From positions 19,158,001-19,222,000 of the forward strand of contig NC_043012.1 of the NCBI RefSeq assembly GCF_006345805.1: 64,000 bases of DNA, read 5' to 3'. The notes under the pieces are model-generated. The model was not told the DNA's origin, did not search any database, and worked only from the letters and a program-made list of their open reading frames with translations. Positions 4,095-62,009 of this stretch are shown here, piece by piece. Source of the DNA: Octopus sinensis. Its lineage: Eukaryota. Position 1 is the first letter of the stretch; every line of letters starts with the position of its first letter. The position numbers were made by a program, and so were the translations under genes.

Positions 4095-4432
4095 TCTATT
4101 ATATATAATAGATATATGTATGTCTGTCTGCGTGTGTTTCTTCTACAATCTAGGGCATCCTCCATCCGATTGTGCTCAAATTTCATATCTTCATACCGAC
4201 CGTATCAGGGCGTGTATGAGTTTTGAAAAGAATTACAAAAATAGTTTCCAGGTGAGAATGCGATCGATAAAGCCGTGGGAACGTGCATTTGCATGCGCCA
4301 GTACATCAGCTGTCGCGATCGATACTACGCGTACGCGAGTAAAATGCACGTGCAGTTTGCGCAAAAATAGCTGGCTGGCTTAAAATTATGCCACAAAATG
4401 GGACGGTTGGACAAGTTGTTTTCAGAAATATA

Positions 4433-4480
<48 letters not shown>

Positions 4481-4807
4481 ATATATATAATAGATATATG
4501 TATGTCTGTCTGCATGTGTTTCTTCTACAATCTAGGGCATCCTCCATCCGATTGTGCTCAAATTTCATATCTTCATACCGACCGTATCAGGGCGTGTATG
4601 AGTTTTGAAAAGAATTACAAAAATAGTTTCCAGGTGAGAATGCGATCGATAAAGCCGTGGGAACGTGCATTTGCATGCGCCAGTACATCAGCTGTCGCGA
4701 TCGATACCACGCGTACGCGAGTAAAATGCACGTGCAGTTTGCGCAAAAATAGCTGGCTGGCTTAAAATTATGCCACAAAATGGGACGGTTGGACAAGTTG
4801 TTTTCAG

Positions 4808-9033: not shown

Positions 9034-12000
9034 AAAAAGAGAGAGAGAGTGAGTGAGAGAGCGGGTATTGATAGGTCAAAGCAGTGTTTCATTTGAGAAA
9101 ATCACATCCAGTGCATACTTAAATGCTTTTGATGATAGCAGATCCAAGATTTTTATCTCCTTACAAATGCTTGAGATGATCTTGTATAGTGTTTACGAAT
9201 GGTGAGAATATTTTTAAGAATAAAGTTTCTGCAAATTTCGCTAAGTAGGATTTTAAAAAATATACGTTTACGAACTATAAAATAAACAAGTGAAAATGTG
9301 TTTTTTCGAAAAGTCCTTATGAGATGAAAGATCTTGATTTCCGAGTTTCTTTTTCTTTTTTTTTTTTCCGCTTTCTATTTTTCATTAAGAAAAATTGCTA
9401 TTGCATTCTCATTTTCTTTAATTTCTCTTTACTCATATTGTTTCTGCCTTTGTTTTCTTTATCCTGTTCTTTACTAAGAACATTTTTATATAAATACACA
9501 TGTATGTATGCGTGTACGTGGATGCATGTATCATTTACTAATCAATGTTAACTGAAACATGTATACATGAGCTCACACACACAGACAATGACACACACAG
9601 ACTTAAACAAAGACAACTCTACACACACGCACACATACACACAAACATACACTTATAGACATACGCTGCGTTTAACATGTATATTATATCTTAACCAAAT
9701 TTCTTACTTGAGTCTTTGACGCAGAATTTCCACGTGTCACTTGGCGTCCGTATCCTATCATGAACAACCTACATCTTAATAAGTATTGATAAAGGTGAAT
9801 TTATTTCCCTTAGTTCAGAAACAGAGTTTAACTTTTGTGCTACGTATAAAACACAGAGTTGGACAAATTCGAAGGCATTCTTACCTAGAAATAGTGAATT
9901 GTACAACTTTCCGTGAGTACCTTTGCTTTTTAAAGGATAAGGACTTTAAATATGATAGTTATTGGGCATTTATTGGTAGTGATGCACCATATAATATTGG
10001 AAAAATGAAGTGTAATTTATGTTTTGAAGAAATATTCCATATCTTCACATACAATTACAGGTTATTTGATCACAAAATGAATTATCTGTAAATTGCGCAC
10101 ATTATAATTATTATTTTTTTTTTTGTAAATAATAACTTCGCAAATAAGGAATGTTAATATGATATAAAGAAAACTCTATCGCTACAGACTCGACTGAATA
10201 CCAAAATTATAACGGTATTTATGTTCCCCTGATCTGTTTCCACTTTATTTCCTCTTTCTTTCTACTTCTCTTAGATATATTAATTTATTTTCTATTGAAT
10301 CATTTTATCATAATTATGATAGGTCAGTGAAAAGAATACATCCTGACCTAAATCAGGTTTTTTTTATTCTACTACTAAATTTCTAAAACAATTTTTTCTT
10401 GTCAATTCTATAAAAGTTTATTATATGCCTAAATGATACCAGAACTATAATAATACCATATTTCAAAGCAAACTCTGCAGCCCTAAAAGCTTAAGCTTTT
10501 ATCTTCCCTCACCTACAGTACACGTTAAGAAGGACTATCTAGCACTTGAAACTTCAATTCGCTGCACACACTCGCATTGGTAAAATCTTGAAAACATTGC
10601 ACAGCACTGTCTACATTGATATGCATATGCAATGTAACTGAACTACCCAAATGCCCATATATGCTACATCAAAGCACAAAGGGACACATATCCAGCAGAA
10701 ACATGTATCAGATTGGAATTTAATGGGTATATAATGAGAACGATATTTTCATAGATATATTTTCAAGATGTATAATTCCCCATTCTTATTTATGATATGT
10801 ACATACAAACACACAAAGGTATATACATATATATATTTATATACACATACATGCATACACACACGAATATACTCATACATATATTGACAACCCCATCAAT
10901 ATTGTGTGAATTATTGTTGTGTTACTGTGAACACTCCTACGCACAACTTCCTCTTGTCAAACAAAAACGTAGGCAAGTGTTGATTCAGTAAATATCGAAG
11001 AGACGAAGAGATGGCAGATAGAAATGCACATTTAGTGAGAGTGTTATATTTTCAGAAAGAAAGAAAAAAAATCTATTTACACATAGATGCGTATAGCATA
11101 AAACGCAAAATTGAATATTTATCTTTTTCTTTACATATGCATTACATCTACACACTCCGACGTATTTCCAGAAATAAACACACACACACACACAAACACA
11201 TATGCAAAACACATTCAAATATTTTCTTATTATATTTATCGATTTAATTTTTTTCTATCGTATTGATGTTTGATTTGATTTGCGATTTCGAGACAATGTT
11301 CTCAATTAGAACGTGTTATAATTGCATGTTGTTTTTGATGATATATTTATTACTTTTGTTTTTCTAGAGATTACTTGCATCGCAGTTCACTGTTTTTCTT
11401 GTTGTTGCTCATGTTGTTATTGCGTTTCTTTCAATCGATTTTTATTCCCAGCTTGATTACTTTCCCGGTTTTTGTATATTTATCAGTAAATTTATATATT
11501 TATTATTTCAGTAATATTGAATAATTGGTTTTGTTGTTGTTGTTGTTGTTGTTTCTATATTTGCAATTGTTTGTCTTCTTAACATTGGTGTTATTGCCAA
11601 TAGGGATGTTTGTCGCTTTGCGCATTGTATGGCAGTGCAAACTGGCTTCAGTTAAGTCCCTTTCAGAAAATTCTAACGACGAGATGGAAGGGTTCCATAT
11701 AGTTACGGCCTGTTTGCTCACTTAAGCAGACAGAAACACATACGTAGAGACACACACACACAGAGGAACAAACATAGAGATACAGACACACACAGTTATA
11801 TTATTTACGCCAAAGGAATGTAGAAACATTGCAAAAAATTAAAATAATAACTTTTCTTTTAATCGTAGAATCTTGTGAGTGAAAATGCGTTGACGTAAAA
11901 TATGCAGATACGCATCGGGTGAATTCTACTTGTAATTCAAAATAGCATAACCACGTCATACACCCTACCATACTGATTCTGCCGAGGTTTAAGTTTCGGT

Positions 12001-16299: not shown

Positions 16300-16620
16300 G
16301 TGGAGGCGCAATGGCCCAGACCGGGCGTTGTGAATGTTTATTGAGCGAAAACACCTAAAAGCAGGGGATGGTGGTGATCCCTGCTGTACTCTTTCACCAC
16401 AATTTTCTCTCACTCTTACTTCCTGTTTCTGTTGTACCTGTATTTCAAGGGGCCGGCCTTGTCACTCTCTGTGTCACGCTGAATATCCCCGAGAACTACG
16501 TTAAGGGTGCACGTGTCTGTGGAGTGCTCAGCCACTTACACCTTAATTTCACGAGCAGGCTGTTCCGTTGATTCGGATCAACCGGAACCCTCATCGTCGT
16601 AACCGACGGAGTGCTTCCAC
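16300..16620 (+). mobile_element. tRNA-derived SINE family B with 11-bp TSD; B-box region deleted
   Basis: TSD atatgttagct (16289-16299, 16621-16631); near-identical to the copies at 23338 and 28550. Confidence 0.9.
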
Positions 16621-16657
16621 ATATGTTAGCTATAATAAATCAAACACGTTATCACAT

Positions 16658-17797
16658 TATTTACATTTGTCGGATATTTGTCCTCTTCTTCTTTGTTGTT
16701 AACACAACGTTTCGGCTGATATACCCTCCAGCTTTCATCAGTTATCTTGGGGAATTTTCGAACCTGCGTTCTCATTCCTAAGGTATTTTTTAATGTCATT
16801 GTTATTATTATTCAGGTCACTGCCAGGAATCGAACGCTTTTAAGCACTACATCAAATGCCCGTGGGCAATTGTGGAGTGAATATTAGTGCTTATATTATG
16901 TAATATTTTACTATCCTTCCTTAATACCGGTTCCCATATGCTACTCATATCTGCACTCGTATTTTCCAGTGGTGTTCTCCGTCTATTATTTTAACTTCAT
17001 CCTACAGGGGGAGGTGGACTCCATTTTTCCATACACGAGAAGCTCGTATTACAGCTTTGCAATGTTCCTCTACCTTTATTTTGAGGGGTCGTCATGTTTC
17101 GCCTTTGTATAACCTACCACAGCTGCACAGGATTGGGTACACGCAGTTTTTGGTCAAATATCTCTTCTTGTGGTGGTTTTACTCGATGGAGATATATACG
17201 ACGTGTTGTATTCCACTTGGATACAGGCCCGATGTCATATGGGCTGCATATCTTTTGTAGCTTTTTGGAGAGGCCTTTTGACATAGAGTAGACATAGTGT
17301 GGACAGTTTATTGGTTTTAACCTTTCTCTTCTTCATAATTGGAGTGGATAGTATGTTTTTGGAGTAGTTATTGCTTAATAGATTGTCACTAAGTTTGATC
17401 ATTTCGTCCTGGTAGGTATCACGATCGCTACCTATATTCTTTGCTCGATGTTTTAGGCACTGAGCAGTCCCTTTCTTTACGTTGTATGGATTTGGGAAAT
17501 TGAAATTGGGGTATCGTCCAGTGAAGGTCGGCTTGTGGTATATGGATTTCCTGAATTCATACTTGGTGCACGTTATTAATACGTCCGGGAATGCTAACTG
17601 ATTGTCGTTTTATTATTCCATTGTAAACTGTACCTTAGGAATGAGAATCCGGTTCGAAATTTCCCCCAAGACACCCGATGAAGGTTAGAGAGTTTATCAG
17701 CCGAATAACAACAAACAAGATGAGGACAAATATCCGTCAAATGTAAATAATGTAAATAATGTACATAATTCCTTATCTCTTAAATACAGAACTGTAT
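16658..17797 (-). mobile_element. PLE family 2: 5'-truncated RT C-terminus plus GIY-YIG, with an inverted terminal repeat at the truncated 5' end
   Basis: Minus strand VQFTME*NDNQLAFPDVLIT...SIYHKPTFTGRY.NFN and NCVYPILCSCGRLYKGET*RPLKIKVEEH. Inverted repeats at 16658-16785 and 17632-17765. Candidate TSD gttatcacat (16648-16657, 17798-17807). Confidence 0.85.
16701..16746 (-). ncRNA. Minimal type I hammerhead ribozyme-like motif (stem I weakened)
   Basis: CUGAUGA-A-aGCUG(gaggguauau)CAGCc-GAAA-CG-UU-GUGUU. Sister copies supply GACAC as the stem I partner. Confidence 0.6.
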
Positions 17798-18703: not shown

Positions 18704-18752
<49 letters not shown>

Positions 18753-18813
18753 AAAAACATTATGGTGAATTGAAGAAATGGAGCTGAACGCAGATTGAAC
18801 AGAAATCGTTTTA

Positions 18814-18901
18814 TTTCATTCTACACGTATTTCGAAAGGCACAATTACCAAAATCCGATTGAATAATGGGACCATATTGTGTCTTTCTCTTCAGGAAGAA
18901 A
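18814..18901 (-). ncRNA. Type I hammerhead ribozyme (inverted-arm copy)
   Basis: Reverse complement reads uuucuuc-CUGAAGA-gaaag...cuuuc-GAAA-uacgug-UA-gaaugaaa; one C-to-U change in stem III relative to the other copy. Confidence 0.75.
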
Positions 18902-19671
18902 AAAGGAAATCCGTTGGAAAAACAAAAACAGAACAGAGGCAGAGCAAAAACAATCGAACTGTGCTCCTAAGAGCCCATGGCGAAACTGTTTATCAGTGTA
19001 TGTTGAGAACCGGTGGCTGAAGAATTCAACAGGTCAGGCATCGGTCAAACATGTGGGTGAGGGTGTATAGATTTCTTTGTGACCGAGAATAAGTTCTGAC
19101 TATTTAAAGAATATTGTGTTTTATAAGGGGCGAGAAAAAATCTACTTAGAGACGTGTGTGTGTGTATACTGTTTCTATTATTTGTGTGTTGGCGTAGGGG
19201 TAGAAAACATTTTTTGTGTACGTGTGTGCGTTTGATCGTTCGGCTGTCAGTGGCTACTGCCGTGATAACCGTTGGGTGGCAGAAAGAAAAAAAATAAAGA
19301 AATTATATATATATATTTTATGTTTTATGTGTGTGTGTGTGTGTTCATCTAAGCCTACCTTGACAAGGAAACCCCCCGCTGTGAAAAAACAAGCCCCGTT
19401 TGTCTTACAGGAGTAATTTCCCTTGCAGTGTTAATTGTAGATATCTTAAAATCTATTTCAGAATTTGTTACCAAGGGCTATGGGTGCCGGTCTTATATAA
19501 ACGCTATTTAAAGCCAGATAAGTGTAACGCCGCCAATGGGGGCATCGAAAAGCCGACTGTAAGAGCCCGTTTACCATCCGGCCTCTGGCAAACAAAATAT
19601 GGAAGAGTTCGGAGACACAAAGGTTGCACTGTCTTCTGCCCCTATCAAATGGGAGGGCCACCGACAAAATT

Positions 19672-21330
19672 TTACCTGCAAAACACCACGAACAGAATAG
19701 TGCAGAAAACTAAGAGCAGGTTAGCTAGGTTTTTTAATAGAATGGGCATGAGTATAGTTTTTGATAACGAACTCACCAAGGCTAATTTCCTAGACGTTAC
19801 ACTTAACCTTAATAGCGACTCATACTGCCCTTACCATAAGCCTTCCACTAATTTGAAGTATGTCAGTGTCTTCTCAAATCATGCCAAAACCGTAACAGAC
19901 AATTTGGTTAAAAACATCTCTCTAAGATTGTCTGGCCTGTCCGCCAGTGCCGATATTTTTATGCAGAAAGCGGATTTTTATAACGCCGCACTATCCAAGG
20001 CCGGTTATAGGCAGAAGGTAATTTATATTGATCCGGCCCTTCCGATGCCATCATTCGGTCATCAGGATAGGGCCGTATATAATAACATTAACATTTTAAG
20101 TAAGGACGGGAGCGCGGTGGATACCGGGGTAGTCGCTCCCGCATTTAATTTAGCGAACAAGGATAATTATCGGTCCGGGAGGTCTTACACTAACCCAAGA
20201 CCCGTTATTCATCCGAGATCACCCACCCACCCAAATGCGAGAGCTGGCGTCCGACCCATCACACTGATAGGAATAAGCATATATGGTTTGTAATCCCCTT
20301 TGGTAAGCAGATTAGAACTAACCTCCCCCTCATGTTTAGACAAGCCATCGCCAATAACTTCCCCAGAAATTCCAAATATTACTCCACGGTTAACTCACAT
20401 AAAGTTAGGATAGCTTTCTCCAACACTAAAAACCTCGCCCAGATAATCGCCTCCCATAATAATAGGCTACTTACTAAGACCCTATCACCTTTTTCCGGAG
20501 GCACAGCCTCTTCTTCCGCTCCCGGTTTAATGCTCAGTAGGAATAATTATAGTAGTAATAATGATATGAGAGCCAGTACAGTGACACATAATCTCAGCTC
20601 CAGCCAGGGAGTACCCACTAGGGGTATAGTTATAAATAGGGGTGTTGTGGTTGATGGTAACAATGGGAGTAGGGTAGAGAGCCCCTTAGCATCCCCAGCA
20701 TCATTTCCCGCAATAGCATACCACGGGCAGTAGCAATGACAGCACTCTGATAGATAGTGGAGAATCAGGGGTTATTCCTATAGTTAATAGTGACGTAGTG
20801 GAAAATAGAGTAGTAAGCGGCTGCAGGTCTCGGAACGAATATAGTGACAGGAACGCAGTTCTAATTTCAGAAACCAATCCTAGCAGAGTAAGATTTACGT
20901 CGGCGAACTCCAAGATCAAAAACGCCGTCTACCAATGCAAGGTTTACACGGACTCAGATGCCTTCACTTATATAGGGGCATCATCCTCAAGATTGTCTTT
21001 GCGTGTCTCCAACCATTACGCACTTTTCGGGACGTGAACAAGCGCCAGACCACGGGACTCAGTAAGCTAATATGGCGACTGAAGGATGCGAACTTAAGCT
21101 ATAGGCTGGAATGGTCAATTTTGTCGGTGGCCCTCCCATTTGATAGGGGCAGAAGACAGTGCAACCTTTGTGTCTCCGAACTCTTCCATATTTTGTTTGC
21201 CAGAGGCCGGATGGTAAACGGGCTCTTACAGTCGGCTTTTCGATGCCCCATTGGCGCGTTACACTTATCTGGCCTTTAAATAGCGTTTATAAATAAGACC
21301 GGCACCCATAGCCCTTGGTAACAAATTCTG
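19672..21330 (+). pseudogene. PLE ORF fragment: RT C-terminus/thumb, linker and GIY-YIG endonuclease, broken by several 1-bp frameshifts
   Basis: ANFLDVTLNLNSDSYCPYHKP...YVSVFSNH; HIWFVIPFGKQIRTN; KVRIAFSNTKNLAQIIASHN; NAVYQCKV...TYIGASS...RVSNH; TGLSKLIWRLK...EWSIL...CNLCVSE...RCPH. Confidence 0.9.
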
Positions 21331-21861
21331 AAATAGATTTTAAGATATCTACAATTAACCACTGCAAGGGAAATTACTCCTGTAAGACAAACGGGGCTTG
21401 TTTTTTCACAGCGGGGGGTTTCCTTGTCAAGGTAGGCTTAGATGAACACACACACACACATAAAACATAAAATATATATATATATTTCTTTATTTTTTTT
21501 CTTTCTGCCACCCAACGGTTATCACGGCAGTAGCCACTGACAGCCGAACGATCAAACGCACACACGTACACAAAAAATGTTTTCTACCCCTACGCCAACA
21601 ACACACATATATAGAACAGTATACACACACACGTCTCTAAGTAGATTTTTTCTCGCCCTTATAAAACATCCAATATTCTTTAAATAGTCAGAACTTTATT
21701 CTCGGTCACACAAGAACATCTATACACCCTCACCCACATTTGACCGATGCCTGACCTGTTGAATTCTTCAGCCACCGGTTCTCAACATACACTGATAAAC
21801 AGTTCGATTTGTTTTTTGCTCTGCCTCTGTTCTGTTTTTGTTTTTCCAACGGATTTCCTTT

Positions 21862-21950
21862 TTTCTTCCTGAAGAGAAAGACACAATATGGTCCCATTAT
21901 TCAATCGGATTTTGGTAATTTGTGCCTTTCGAAACACGTGTAGAATGAAA
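21862..21950 (+). ncRNA. Type I hammerhead ribozyme in the PLE 3' terminal repeat
   Basis: Stem I uuuc-uuc / gaa-u-gaaa; core CUGAAGA (21869-21875); stem II GAAAG.CACAA / UUGUG.CUUUC; GAAA (21931-21934); palindromic stem III ACACGUGU; cleavage triplet GUA ending at 21942. Confidence 0.8.
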
Positions 21951-22158
21951 TAAAACGATTTCTGTTCAATCTGCGTTCAGCTCCATTTCTTCAATTCACC
22001 AATAATGTTTTAATTTCAATTATCCGCACCAACGCACGGTTGCAACGCCAGATGGTTGTACCTCCAACCGTGCTGTTCACTGCTGTGATTTTTGCTACTA
22101 AGGTATCGGTTAAACTTTTGATTAATCTACTACAAGATTATTCATCTTTCTATTTCAC

Positions 22159-22198
<40 letters not shown>

Positions 22199-23268: not shown

Positions 23269-23337
23269 ATATATTCTTGTCATTACTTTTGGAATTCCAA
23301 GTGACAAACCCAACTATGCAGTAATTCTATAATATTA

Positions 23338-23724
23338 GCGGAAGCACTCCGTCGGTTACGACGATGAGGGTTCCGGTTGATCCGAATCAACGGAACAGCC
23401 TGCTCGTGAAATTAACGTGTAAGTGGCTGGGCACTCCACAGACACGTGTACCCTTAACGTAGTTCTCGGGGATATTCAGCGTGACACAGAGAGTGACAAG
23501 GCCGGCCCCTTGAAATACAGGTACAACAGAAACAGGAAGTAAGAGTGAGAGAAAGTTGTGGTGAAAGAGTACAGCAGGGGTCACCACCATCCCCTGCTGG
23601 AGCCTCGTGGAACTTTTAGATGTTTTCGCTCAATAAACACTCACAACGCCCGGTCTGGGAATCGAAACCGCGATCCTATGACCGCGAGTCCGCTGCCCTA
23701 ATCACTGGGCTATTGCGCCTCCAC
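23338..23724 (-). mobile_element. Full-length tRNA-derived SINE family B with 13-bp TSD
   Basis: Head gtggaggcgcaatagcccagtgattagggcagcggactcgcggtcataggatcgcggtttcgattccc (A and B boxes); TSD ttctataatatta (23325-23337, 23725-23737). Confidence 0.9.
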
Positions 23725-28324: not shown

Positions 28325-29116
28325 TTATTTTATTTCTTTCAGTAATTTGACTGCGGGCCATGCTGGAGCACCTTCTTAAGTCGAACAAGTTGACCCCAGA
28401 ACTTATTCTTTATAAGCCTAGTACTTATTTTATCGGTCTATTTCTCCGAACCGCTAATTTACAGGGACGCAAACACACCAGCATCGGAAGTTTTGGAGGA
28501 TAAATATACTTATATATATATATATATATATATTATATTATATACATATGGGGAAGCACTCCGTCGGTTACGACGATGAGGGTTCCGGTTGATCCGAATC
28601 AACGGAACAGCCTGCTCGTGAAATTAACGTGTAAGTGGCTGAGCACTCCACAGACACGTGCACCCTTAACGTAGTTCTCGAGGATATTCAGCGTGACACA
28701 GAGAGTGACAAGGCCGGCCCTTTGAAATACAGGTAGAACAGAAACAGGAAGTAAGAGTGAGAGAAAGTTGTGGTGAAAGAGTACAGCAGGGATCACCACC
28801 ACCCCCTGCCGGACCCTCGTGGAGCTATTAGGTGTTTTCGCTCAATAAACACTCACAACGCTCGGTCTGGGAATAGAAACCACGATCCTATGACCGCGAG
28901 TCCGCTGCCCTAACCACTGGGCCATTGCGCCTCCACATATACATATATGTCTTGTATATATAAGATGGGTTTCTTTCAGTTTCCTACTATTAGATCCACT
29001 CACAAAGCTTTGATTGACTTTGTTTGGCTCGAGGTTATAGTAGTTGACAGTGGGACTGGACCCGGCACCATGTGGTTGCTAAGCAAGGTACTTACCACAC
29101 AGCCACTCCTGCGCCT
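28325..29116 (-). mobile_element. SINE family A, split by a SINE B insertion in its central (TA)n
   Basis: Tail at 28325-28488 (gactgcgggccatgctggagcacc); head at 28966-29116 (accacacagccactcctgcgcc). Confidence 0.8.
28550..28936 (-). mobile_element. Full-length SINE family B with 10-bp TSD
   Basis: TSD atatacatat (28540-28549, 28937-28946); A box tggcccagtgg. Confidence 0.9.
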
Positions 29117-61581: not shown

Positions 61582-62009
61582 CTTTTGTCTCAGTGCAAGT
61601 CACTGATCTCGTCGGAATATGTATTTCATTCCTGGTTTCTTAATCTGGGAGGCAGTCTATATAGGGATAACGATCGCTACACAATTTATATTTGTAGCCA
61701 AGTAGAAGCGAATACGTTTAAGAAATGACTACTTCATTCTTCCAAATATTCGAAGTATCTGTTAGTAGAGAAAATAATTAATATAAGGTCATTTTTTTGA
61801 TGTAACGCTTAGTCTGGATATCGGAATAATTGAACCATATCATAAATCGAACGACAATGTAAGATATGTAAATATAAATCCAGTTTCCCACTACTCTGTC
61901 ATAAAACTAATTATAAAGAATATATCCAGTGCCATATCCAAACTTGTGGCAAAGAAAATACTTGCTGGCGCATTATTACAATGCAGCATTCGATACTGCC
62001 GTATATATG

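Follow-up and report, generated by a model that had tools for sequence, protein, structure and literature searches.

How does a retroelement come to be inserted together with a near-identical, inverted copy of its own 3′ region? The question is raised by a Penelope-like element (PLE) of Octopus sinensis, which lies in a 64,000-nucleotide stretch of assembly GCF_006345805.1 (contig NC_043012.1, positions 19,158,001 to 19,222,000 of the forward strand), called the window here and used for all coordinates. An original prediction, made from the sequence alone, had described a young element at 18754–22011 that folds back on itself, with near-identical inverted arms around a reverse transcriptase (RT)/linker core of ~1.45 kb and a hammerhead ribozyme on each strand. 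Comparison with the rest of the family suggests that such insertions were probably primed from both ends of a single DNA break.

The inverted arms are real, and a global alignment recovers the predicted coordinates: 18754–19671 (−) and 21117–22011 (+), with 880 identical positions in 931 columns, two substitutions, and 49 gap columns that amount to 24 events. The 1445-nt spacer and its linker also stand. The core is nevertheless misnamed by its RT label, since its sequence begins with residue 363 of the 899 in the intact frame, three residues beyond the YRDD motif, and the window copy therefore lacks the RT active site. What remains is the RT thumb, the linker, and most of a GIY-YIG endonuclease, in four frame pieces (tblastn with protein P0001 of the intact copy). 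The element does not end at 22011 as predicted but runs on the + strand for 149 bp more, so that the whole insertion spans 18754–22160. This 149-bp tail is present in other copies of the family and absent from the inverted arm. The inverted arm thus terminates at one site, which we call S (22011), and the direct body at a second, L (22160), with (TA)n outside both; a target-site duplication is not readable inside (TA)n. Stem III of the hammerhead motif differs between the arms, and the right arm lacks ~28 nt that lay between a pair of short direct repeats, a deletion carried by one of the 91 arms that span the site. The window copy is a dead, recent, 5′-truncated insertion of a Hydra-type PLE, with the following features:

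18704..18753, no strand: left half of the (TA)n target, recognized from the sequence and the flanks of other family members
18754..19671, minus strand: inverted arm, 918 nt, with the end of the endonuclease frame, the 3′ untranslated region, and the pseudo-long terminal repeat (pLTR); ends at S
18808..18906, minus strand: type I hammerhead motif of the left arm, stem III AUACGUGU, predicted cut after A18822
18956..18989, minus strand: predicted internal promoter, intact in the left arm only, where arm 5′ ends of the family peak
19670..19671, no strand: head-to-head junction with 2-nt microhomology
19670..21280, plus strand: broken 5′-truncated frame with RT thumb, Ser/Asn-rich linker, and endonuclease of GIY-YIG fold; residues 363–888 in four pieces (tblastn; folds of the intact copy)
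21117..22011, plus strand: portion of the right arm common to the inverted arm; ~28 nt lost near 21803–21813, between repeats resembling an initiator and a downstream promoter element (DPE)
21857..21956, plus strand: type I hammerhead motif of the right arm, CUGAAGA at 21869–21875, GAAA at 21931–21934, stem III ACACGUGU, predicted cut after A21942
22012..22160, plus strand: 149-bp tail from S to L, with a stem-loop at 22034–22073
22161..22195, no strand: right half of the (TA)n target, recognized from the sequence

Inverted arms can also be made by a long-read fold-back chimera during assembly. The arms do differ mostly by small indels, which resemble long-read consensus error, and many letters that the left arm lacks are present in contigs of other runs, so some of the small indels in this copy are probably consensus errors. 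As the origin of the arms themselves, an assembly artefact is extremely unlikely: the flanks are not duplicated, the ends are the two biological ends of the family, and most insertions of the family are built alike (100 of 118 sites, see below). The 1445-nt spacer and the deletion specific to one arm also stand against it.

The family is represented by an intact natural copy at locus L021, with a unit of 3646 bp and an open frame of 899 residues. It includes partial tandem copies (pLTRs), inverted 5′-truncated copies, and one-sided tails, and it is young (1.6% substitutions relative to one natural copy), which bears out the prediction of a young PLE with an inverted partial repeat. The family has two fixed 3′ ends, S and L, 149 nt apart. 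Exact matches to these ends number 577 for S and at least 1497 for L in the genome, and a TA-like flank adjoins each of 158 L ends and 153 of 154 S ends.

We took a census of all 118 sites on contig C1 (0–150.5 Mb) with an exact S or L end. One locus (L010) was scored as S/L by its coordinates, another (L075) was counted as a single L end, and a duplicated insertion (L148) was counted once. One hundred of the 118 sites are head-to-head inversions and 18 are single; the inverted layout is therefore the norm of the family. The inversions comprise 96 S/L pairs, three with one odd end, one L/L, and no S/S. A replicate on contig C2, based on 40 S sites, gave 28 S/L pairs, one insertion cut by the edge of the locus, 11 that were single within the 5–7 kb fetched, and again no S/S. 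When both contigs are pooled, 124 of 129 inverted insertions have one end of each kind, and S is never paired with S. The same arrangement recurs in a second family, whose protein is 44% identical to the first, which has no blastn match to it, and whose tail is 119 nt long: by coordinates and strands alone, the ends listed for C1 and part of C2 form 43 close pairs, and all 43 face outward as S/L.

Against this background, the original treatment of the window locus as special does not hold, since both arms carry complete hammerhead motifs in 64 of the 129 inverted insertions. Only the arm length is unusual: eight of the 129 inversions share at least 900 nt, and the median is 142. The locus is thus an ordinary dead copy whose shared arm happens to be unusually long. 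Some census loci are more elaborate. Locus L148 contains an entire short S/L insertion twice, ~1.1 kb apart, and L057, L071, L103, and L128 are inversions with extra internal pieces, such as repeated template jumps at the junction would give.

The relative extent of the two arms bears on how the pairs were made. When 117 simple S/L insertions are compared, it is the S arm that extends further 5′ in 61 and the L arm that does so in 30, and both stop at the same point (within 10 nt) in 26. In 31 of the 117, no sequence is common to both arms, while a further 30 share sequence and have the longer S arm, which leaves the tail on the shorter arm. These figures can be set against fold-back or self-priming, in which a single cDNA (or antisense template) would copy itself and the endonuclease would resolve the product at S, leaving a tail on one side. 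Earlier authors have suggested fold-back as the origin of inverted junctions in PLEs (PMC3846280) and of the tail (PMC8557442), and it would explain the variants shared between arms (see below), the 26 junctions at which both arms stop together, and the 30 insertions whose L arm is longer, among them the window locus. It cannot yield the 31 insertions without common arm sequence, nor the 30 in which the tail sits on the shorter arm. In its plain form, it also predicts L/L or S/S ends, which were seen once and never, respectively, in 129 inversions. Because of the arms without shared sequence, the tails on shorter arms, and the S/L ends, fold-back is insufficient as the sole route, and we regard it as an unlikely explanation for the family.

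Two cDNAs primed on one break, one at S and the other at L, would explain all three of these observations. The question then is whether they were copied from one RNA or two. At sites of minor subfamily variants, the two arms agree 130 times and disagree five times, compared with a permutation mean of 33.6 shared and a maximum of 47. Same-point stops are also in excess (26 against 5.9 expected, and 16 against 2.3 outside the predicted promoter peak), a pattern to be expected of a shared RNA 5′ end. In view of the shared variants and the excess of shared 5′ ends, we lean toward a single RNA template. The alternative is dual priming in which one RNA is used at S and another at L, both of them (or two pLTRs within a single tandem transcript) coming from one source locus and being kept together by a protein dimer or by the palindromic stem III. 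Such priming would need no strand displacement when the arms overlap, a stem III that is palindromic in 15 of 16 hammerhead motifs of other families could hold two RNAs, and dual priming has been described in theory for L1 (PMC2837659). Yet a mixed pool would often supply two free RNAs with different subfamily variants, whereas the arms show five differences against 130 agreements, and two-RNA priming by itself leaves both the different site use of each RNA and the excess of shared 5′ ends unexplained. We consider it unlikely.

Altogether, the footprints make it reasonably probable that the two DNA ends of a cut in (TA)n each primed reverse transcription, using two fixed sites of the RNA that lie 149 nt apart. 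In this sequence of events, an RT-endonuclease, probably dimeric, would cut both strands in (TA)n; S would serve as the start for one DNA end and L for the other, whichever the orientation; and each cDNA would extend until it stalls, is captured, or reaches the 5′ end of the RNA. The 3′ ends of the two cDNAs would then be joined by microhomology and filled in. At the junctions themselves, the overlap averages 1.9 nt, compared with 0.69 expected (45 clean junctions of 95). An L-primed cDNA that stops inside the tail would leave arms that share nothing, i.e., an inversion as in L1 twin priming, whereas one that passes S would leave an inverted repeat, as at the window locus. The hammerheads would be carried along passively in the pLTR. 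The one PLE studied in vitro, a Poseidon element, cleaves its target on both strands and extends both, uses two starts on either side of the tail, and is a predicted dimer (PMC11167929). By analogy, the two-primer account agrees with this behavior.

Several points weigh against priming from both break ends. The record is a genomic footprint in which no intermediate has been seen, and one L/L and three odd-ended insertions exist. Sites were defined by exact end patterns, so that pairs with two variant ends were missed. Fifty of the 95 junctions have apparent inserts or mismatches to the reference, some of which are subfamily variants. The window locus taken alone, with its longer L arm and shared sequence, fits fold-back with resolution at S, and the excess of same-point junctions fits fold-back as well as it fits a shared RNA end. 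Finally, an L-primed cDNA that passes S requires strand displacement, sequential use of the sites, or a second pLTR or RNA.

If both break ends are indeed used, a broader reading may follow, on which we are evenly divided: programmed twin priming may be the normal integration of Hydra-type PLEs, and perhaps of all endonuclease-bearing PLEs. A dimeric enzyme would present two break ends to two fixed starts on one RNA, and the inverted pLTR and one-sided tail would be a single footprint of that event. One lineage would do so while still targeting (TA)n without the linker zinc motif thought to be tied to such targeting.

The assignment to a Hydra-type PLE is based on protein motifs and on the (TA)n habit. 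For the structural model of P0001, the best Foldseek match is telomerase (E 3.1e-09; VIA Z 16.1, rmsd [root-mean-square deviation] 4.4, 302 residues aligned, tied with the RT of a diversity-generating retroelement). The model of the endonuclease domain resembles I-TevI (Z 9.6, rmsd 2.5, 89 aligned), T4 EndoII (Z 7.7), and UvrC (Z 5.9), with a Foldseek E of 0.08 only. The models thus indicate that the intact protein is a telomerase-like RT followed by a C-terminal GIY-YIG domain in one open reading frame (ORF). Pfam gave no match, including none to RT, for the frame pieces in the window or the intact ORF, and a sequence search of the PDB gave none either. The Hydra clade is marked by an RWK motif and by DKT instead of DKG. 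P0001 contains RWL and DKT, and RW[KR] and DKT occur in 109 and 110 of 120 homologues, respectively; the only homologue that carries a species name, from Argonauta, is 34% identical. The protein has no CCHH motif. By eye, CNLCVSE ... VN ... CPH supplies a CxxC and a CxH beside a conserved E and N. The linker motif CxCx5C is absent from all frames in 32 of 32 copies of this family; 103 of 113 full homologues have it, as do other families of the same genome. Because of this absence, we classify the family as a Hydra-type variant by motifs and (TA)n habit, one that behaves like Hydra, and not as a member by every listed Hydra feature.

The genome holds further Hydra-type families. Across the Hydra-type families of this genome, several lack the linker CxCx5C and others keep it (L021:6200–8899, L218, L220, L221, L223, L224, L226, and L227). 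The family studied here still targets (TA)n; in place of CxCx5C, its linker is a disordered, Ser/Asn-rich stretch of ~130 residues. The second large Hydra-type family (L202, L204, and L206), with its 119-nt tail, has 929 exact S and 712 exact L ends and a hammerhead with a 60-nt stem II region. A third family is represented by an inverted insertion at L051:4755–7081 whose two ends, both in (TA)n, are unlike: one is short, and the opposite one bears a tail of ~150 nt.

Much of this anatomy has precedents. Like the Hydra clade of Craig et al. (2021; PMC8557442), the family has a single ORF, an RW-type N-terminal motif, DKT, no CCHH, CxxC-E and N-CxH motifs, a canonical hammerhead, and (TA)n insertion. 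It differs in the missing linker CxCx5C, in its unit of 3646 bp with an ORF of 895 residues (Hydra elements are described there as generally <3 kb), and in its tail of 149 bp, compared with the 30–40 bp given for PLEs in the same paper. Typical endonuclease-bearing Penelope elements (Arkhipova et al. 2013, PMC3846280; Schostak et al. 2008, PMC2377424) share the head-to-head inverted copy, the tail on one inverted pLTR, microhomology at the 5′ junction, and an internal promoter with a DPE. In those accounts, the tail is optional and the inversion is ascribed to self-priming, whereas here the pairing is nearly obligatory, the tail lies on either arm, and a quarter of the insertions have no shared arm sequence.

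Target-primed reverse transcription in vitro by PAc, a Poseidon element of Anolis (Frangieh et al. 2024, PMC11167929), is similar in its two starts bounding the tail, its cutting and extension of both strands, its AT-rich target, and the uncut hammerhead in its template. The PAc start sites are 30–40 nt apart and lie inside the ORF, and the main text of that paper draws no link from the two sites to inverted insertions or to a one-and-one pairing. In L1 twin or dual priming (Meyer et al. 2010, PMC2837659), the second DNA end likewise primes a second cDNA and gives an inversion with microhomology at the joint. There, however, the route is a variant one, marked by an internal site that varies and by an internal deletion; in the present family it would be the principal route, its two sites fixed and its arms often overlapping. 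PLE hammerheads (Cervera and de la Peña 2014, PMC4209133) resemble ours in being type I with a short palindromic stem III and probable activity as dimers; helix II is 6–8 bp there, compared with a stem II region of 55–60 nt and an 8-nt stem III palindrome here. Hammerhead pairs on opposite strands, 100–700 bp apart, are reported from Schistosoma PLEs in the same paper.

Thus the inverted copy and the one-sided tail of 30–40 bp (PMC3846280, PMC8557442), the opposite-strand hammerheads (PMC4209133), and the two start sites (PMC11167929) have all been published. A literature search, which left out supplements and several older papers, found no two-primer account of PLE inversions, no count of end pairing, and no tail >100 bp. 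Layout, hammerheads, and one-sided tail are therefore known, and strict S/L pairing and tails of 119–149 bp were not found in print. The origin of PLE inverted ends and tails is itself described as unresolved (PMC8557442, PMC11167929). In a young, high-copy family with a long tail, the two ends are easily distinguished, which turns the qualitative remark that a tail occurs on one side into a counted, testable rule: S/L, not S/S or L/L.

Where the RNA begins is suggested by the arms themselves. Arm 5′ ends cluster ~95 nt before the hammerhead core, with 25 of 151 ends on C1 and 11 of 53 on C2 falling within 9 nt. The sequence at this point is CA(+1)GTT, with AGTTC at +28 to +32; CA(+1)GTT fits the initiator and AGTTC fits the DPE consensus. 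The cluster point is therefore likely to be the RNA start. In the window copy, the left arm retains the predicted start at 18987 (−), and the ~28 nt lost from the right arm lay between the initiator-like and DPE-like motifs. A second cluster of 5′ ends falls at the 3′ foot of the stem-loop in the tail. Penelope of Drosophila virilis has an internal promoter with a DPE (PMC2377424).

A complete hammerhead core motif is found in both arms, as originally predicted: CUGAAGA, a 55-nt stem II, GAAA, an 8-nt self-complementary stem III, GUA, and stem I. Rfam gave no hammerhead match for the arms at gathering and E-value thresholds, free folding of the motif was no better than that of shuffles (z 0.01 and −0.78), and in the isolated monomer the hammerhead fold (−13.5 kcal/mol) is not the lowest-energy fold (−16.9 kcal/mol). 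With neither folding nor Rfam behind it, the call rests on the core motif and its conservation in other families. Sixteen hammerhead motifs of other families, found in 30 loci without requiring a palindrome, all have an 8-nt stem III, and it is fully self-complementary in 15 of them, with six different sequences. Arms that start at the predicted cut site form a small cluster on C1 (five of 151) that was not repeated on C2 (one of 53), so that a genomic trace of cleavage did not emerge. In the family census, most RNA-copied arms read through an uncut hammerhead. Metazoan PLE hammerheads are described as cleaving poorly and as needing dimers or protein (PMC4209133, PMC11167929).

The original prediction went on to propose that read-through transcription, for example in a host intron, would yield a long duplex whose hammerheads could sever the host pre-mRNA in either orientation. 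The duplex part survives: 878 of 895 nt are predicted to pair, and the product is a plausible substrate for ADAR or small-RNA pathways, by analogy with lizard, in which Penelope repeats are heavily ADAR-edited (PMC5625713). The cleavage part fared worse. In both directions of transcription, the antisense arm of the ribozyme is made first and the sense ribozyme last. From core to cut site, 72 of 74 nt pair with the opposite arm, and this pairing is worth −162 kcal/mol, compared with −13.5 or −11.7 for the ribozyme folds. The hammerheads are thus likely to be masked in read-through RNA. Both arms do have intact cores within the predicted duplex, and in some molecules rapid folding, during transcription or with the help of protein, could outpace the zippering of the duplex. 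Because the antisense precedes the ribozyme, the duplex dwarfs its fold, and single PLE hammerheads show no cleavage in vitro (PMC4209133) or require protein (PMC11167929), severing of a host pre-mRNA is very unlikely; the fold that is suboptimal even in the isolated motif and the uncut hammerheads in most RNA-copied arms point the same way. A ribozyme free of its complement would arise only in RNA from the pLTR promoter, which is intact in the left arm and would fire leftwards. More generally, a large share of family insertions are built-in hairpins, which would be a source of duplex RNA where read through and probably not of ribozyme cuts.

No host exon was identified by Pfam. Searches of 150 of 190 filtered frames in the window gave two matches, both below family cut-offs, a result compatible with a large intron; 88 of 92 frames from 30 kb of neighboring sequence gave one match, a zf-RVT of the type found in long interspersed nuclear elements (LINEs). 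No sequencing run recorded as RNA was listed as containing the sequence. Four contig sets compared with 18754–21110 cover the family throughout, and none is listed across 19671/19672, so that they gave no RNA specific to the locus; their runs are presumed to be RNA, and differences among the contig sets are inseparable from subfamily variants without matched DNA. An AATAAA at 21949–21954 (+) lies in the 3′ strand of hammerhead stem I, 7 nt beyond the cut site, and others occur at 18815 (−), 19293 (+), 21700 (−), and 21494 (−). Some of these fall in the first-transcribed arm in each direction and might stop read-through early.

The window also contains other repeats. Older remnants at 9900–10070 (+) and 61787–61951 (+) are related to the endonuclease and RT thumb, and an open frame at 17235–17609 (−) appears by eye to be the thumb region of another retroelement, with no Pfam match. 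A near-perfect 300-bp tandem duplication occupies 4100–4399 and 4482–4781. A repeat of 270–300 bp is present in three copies that are 96–97% alike (16360–16628, 23330–23639, and 28544–28851), and one inverted pair of these brackets the element at a spacing of 6.7 kb.

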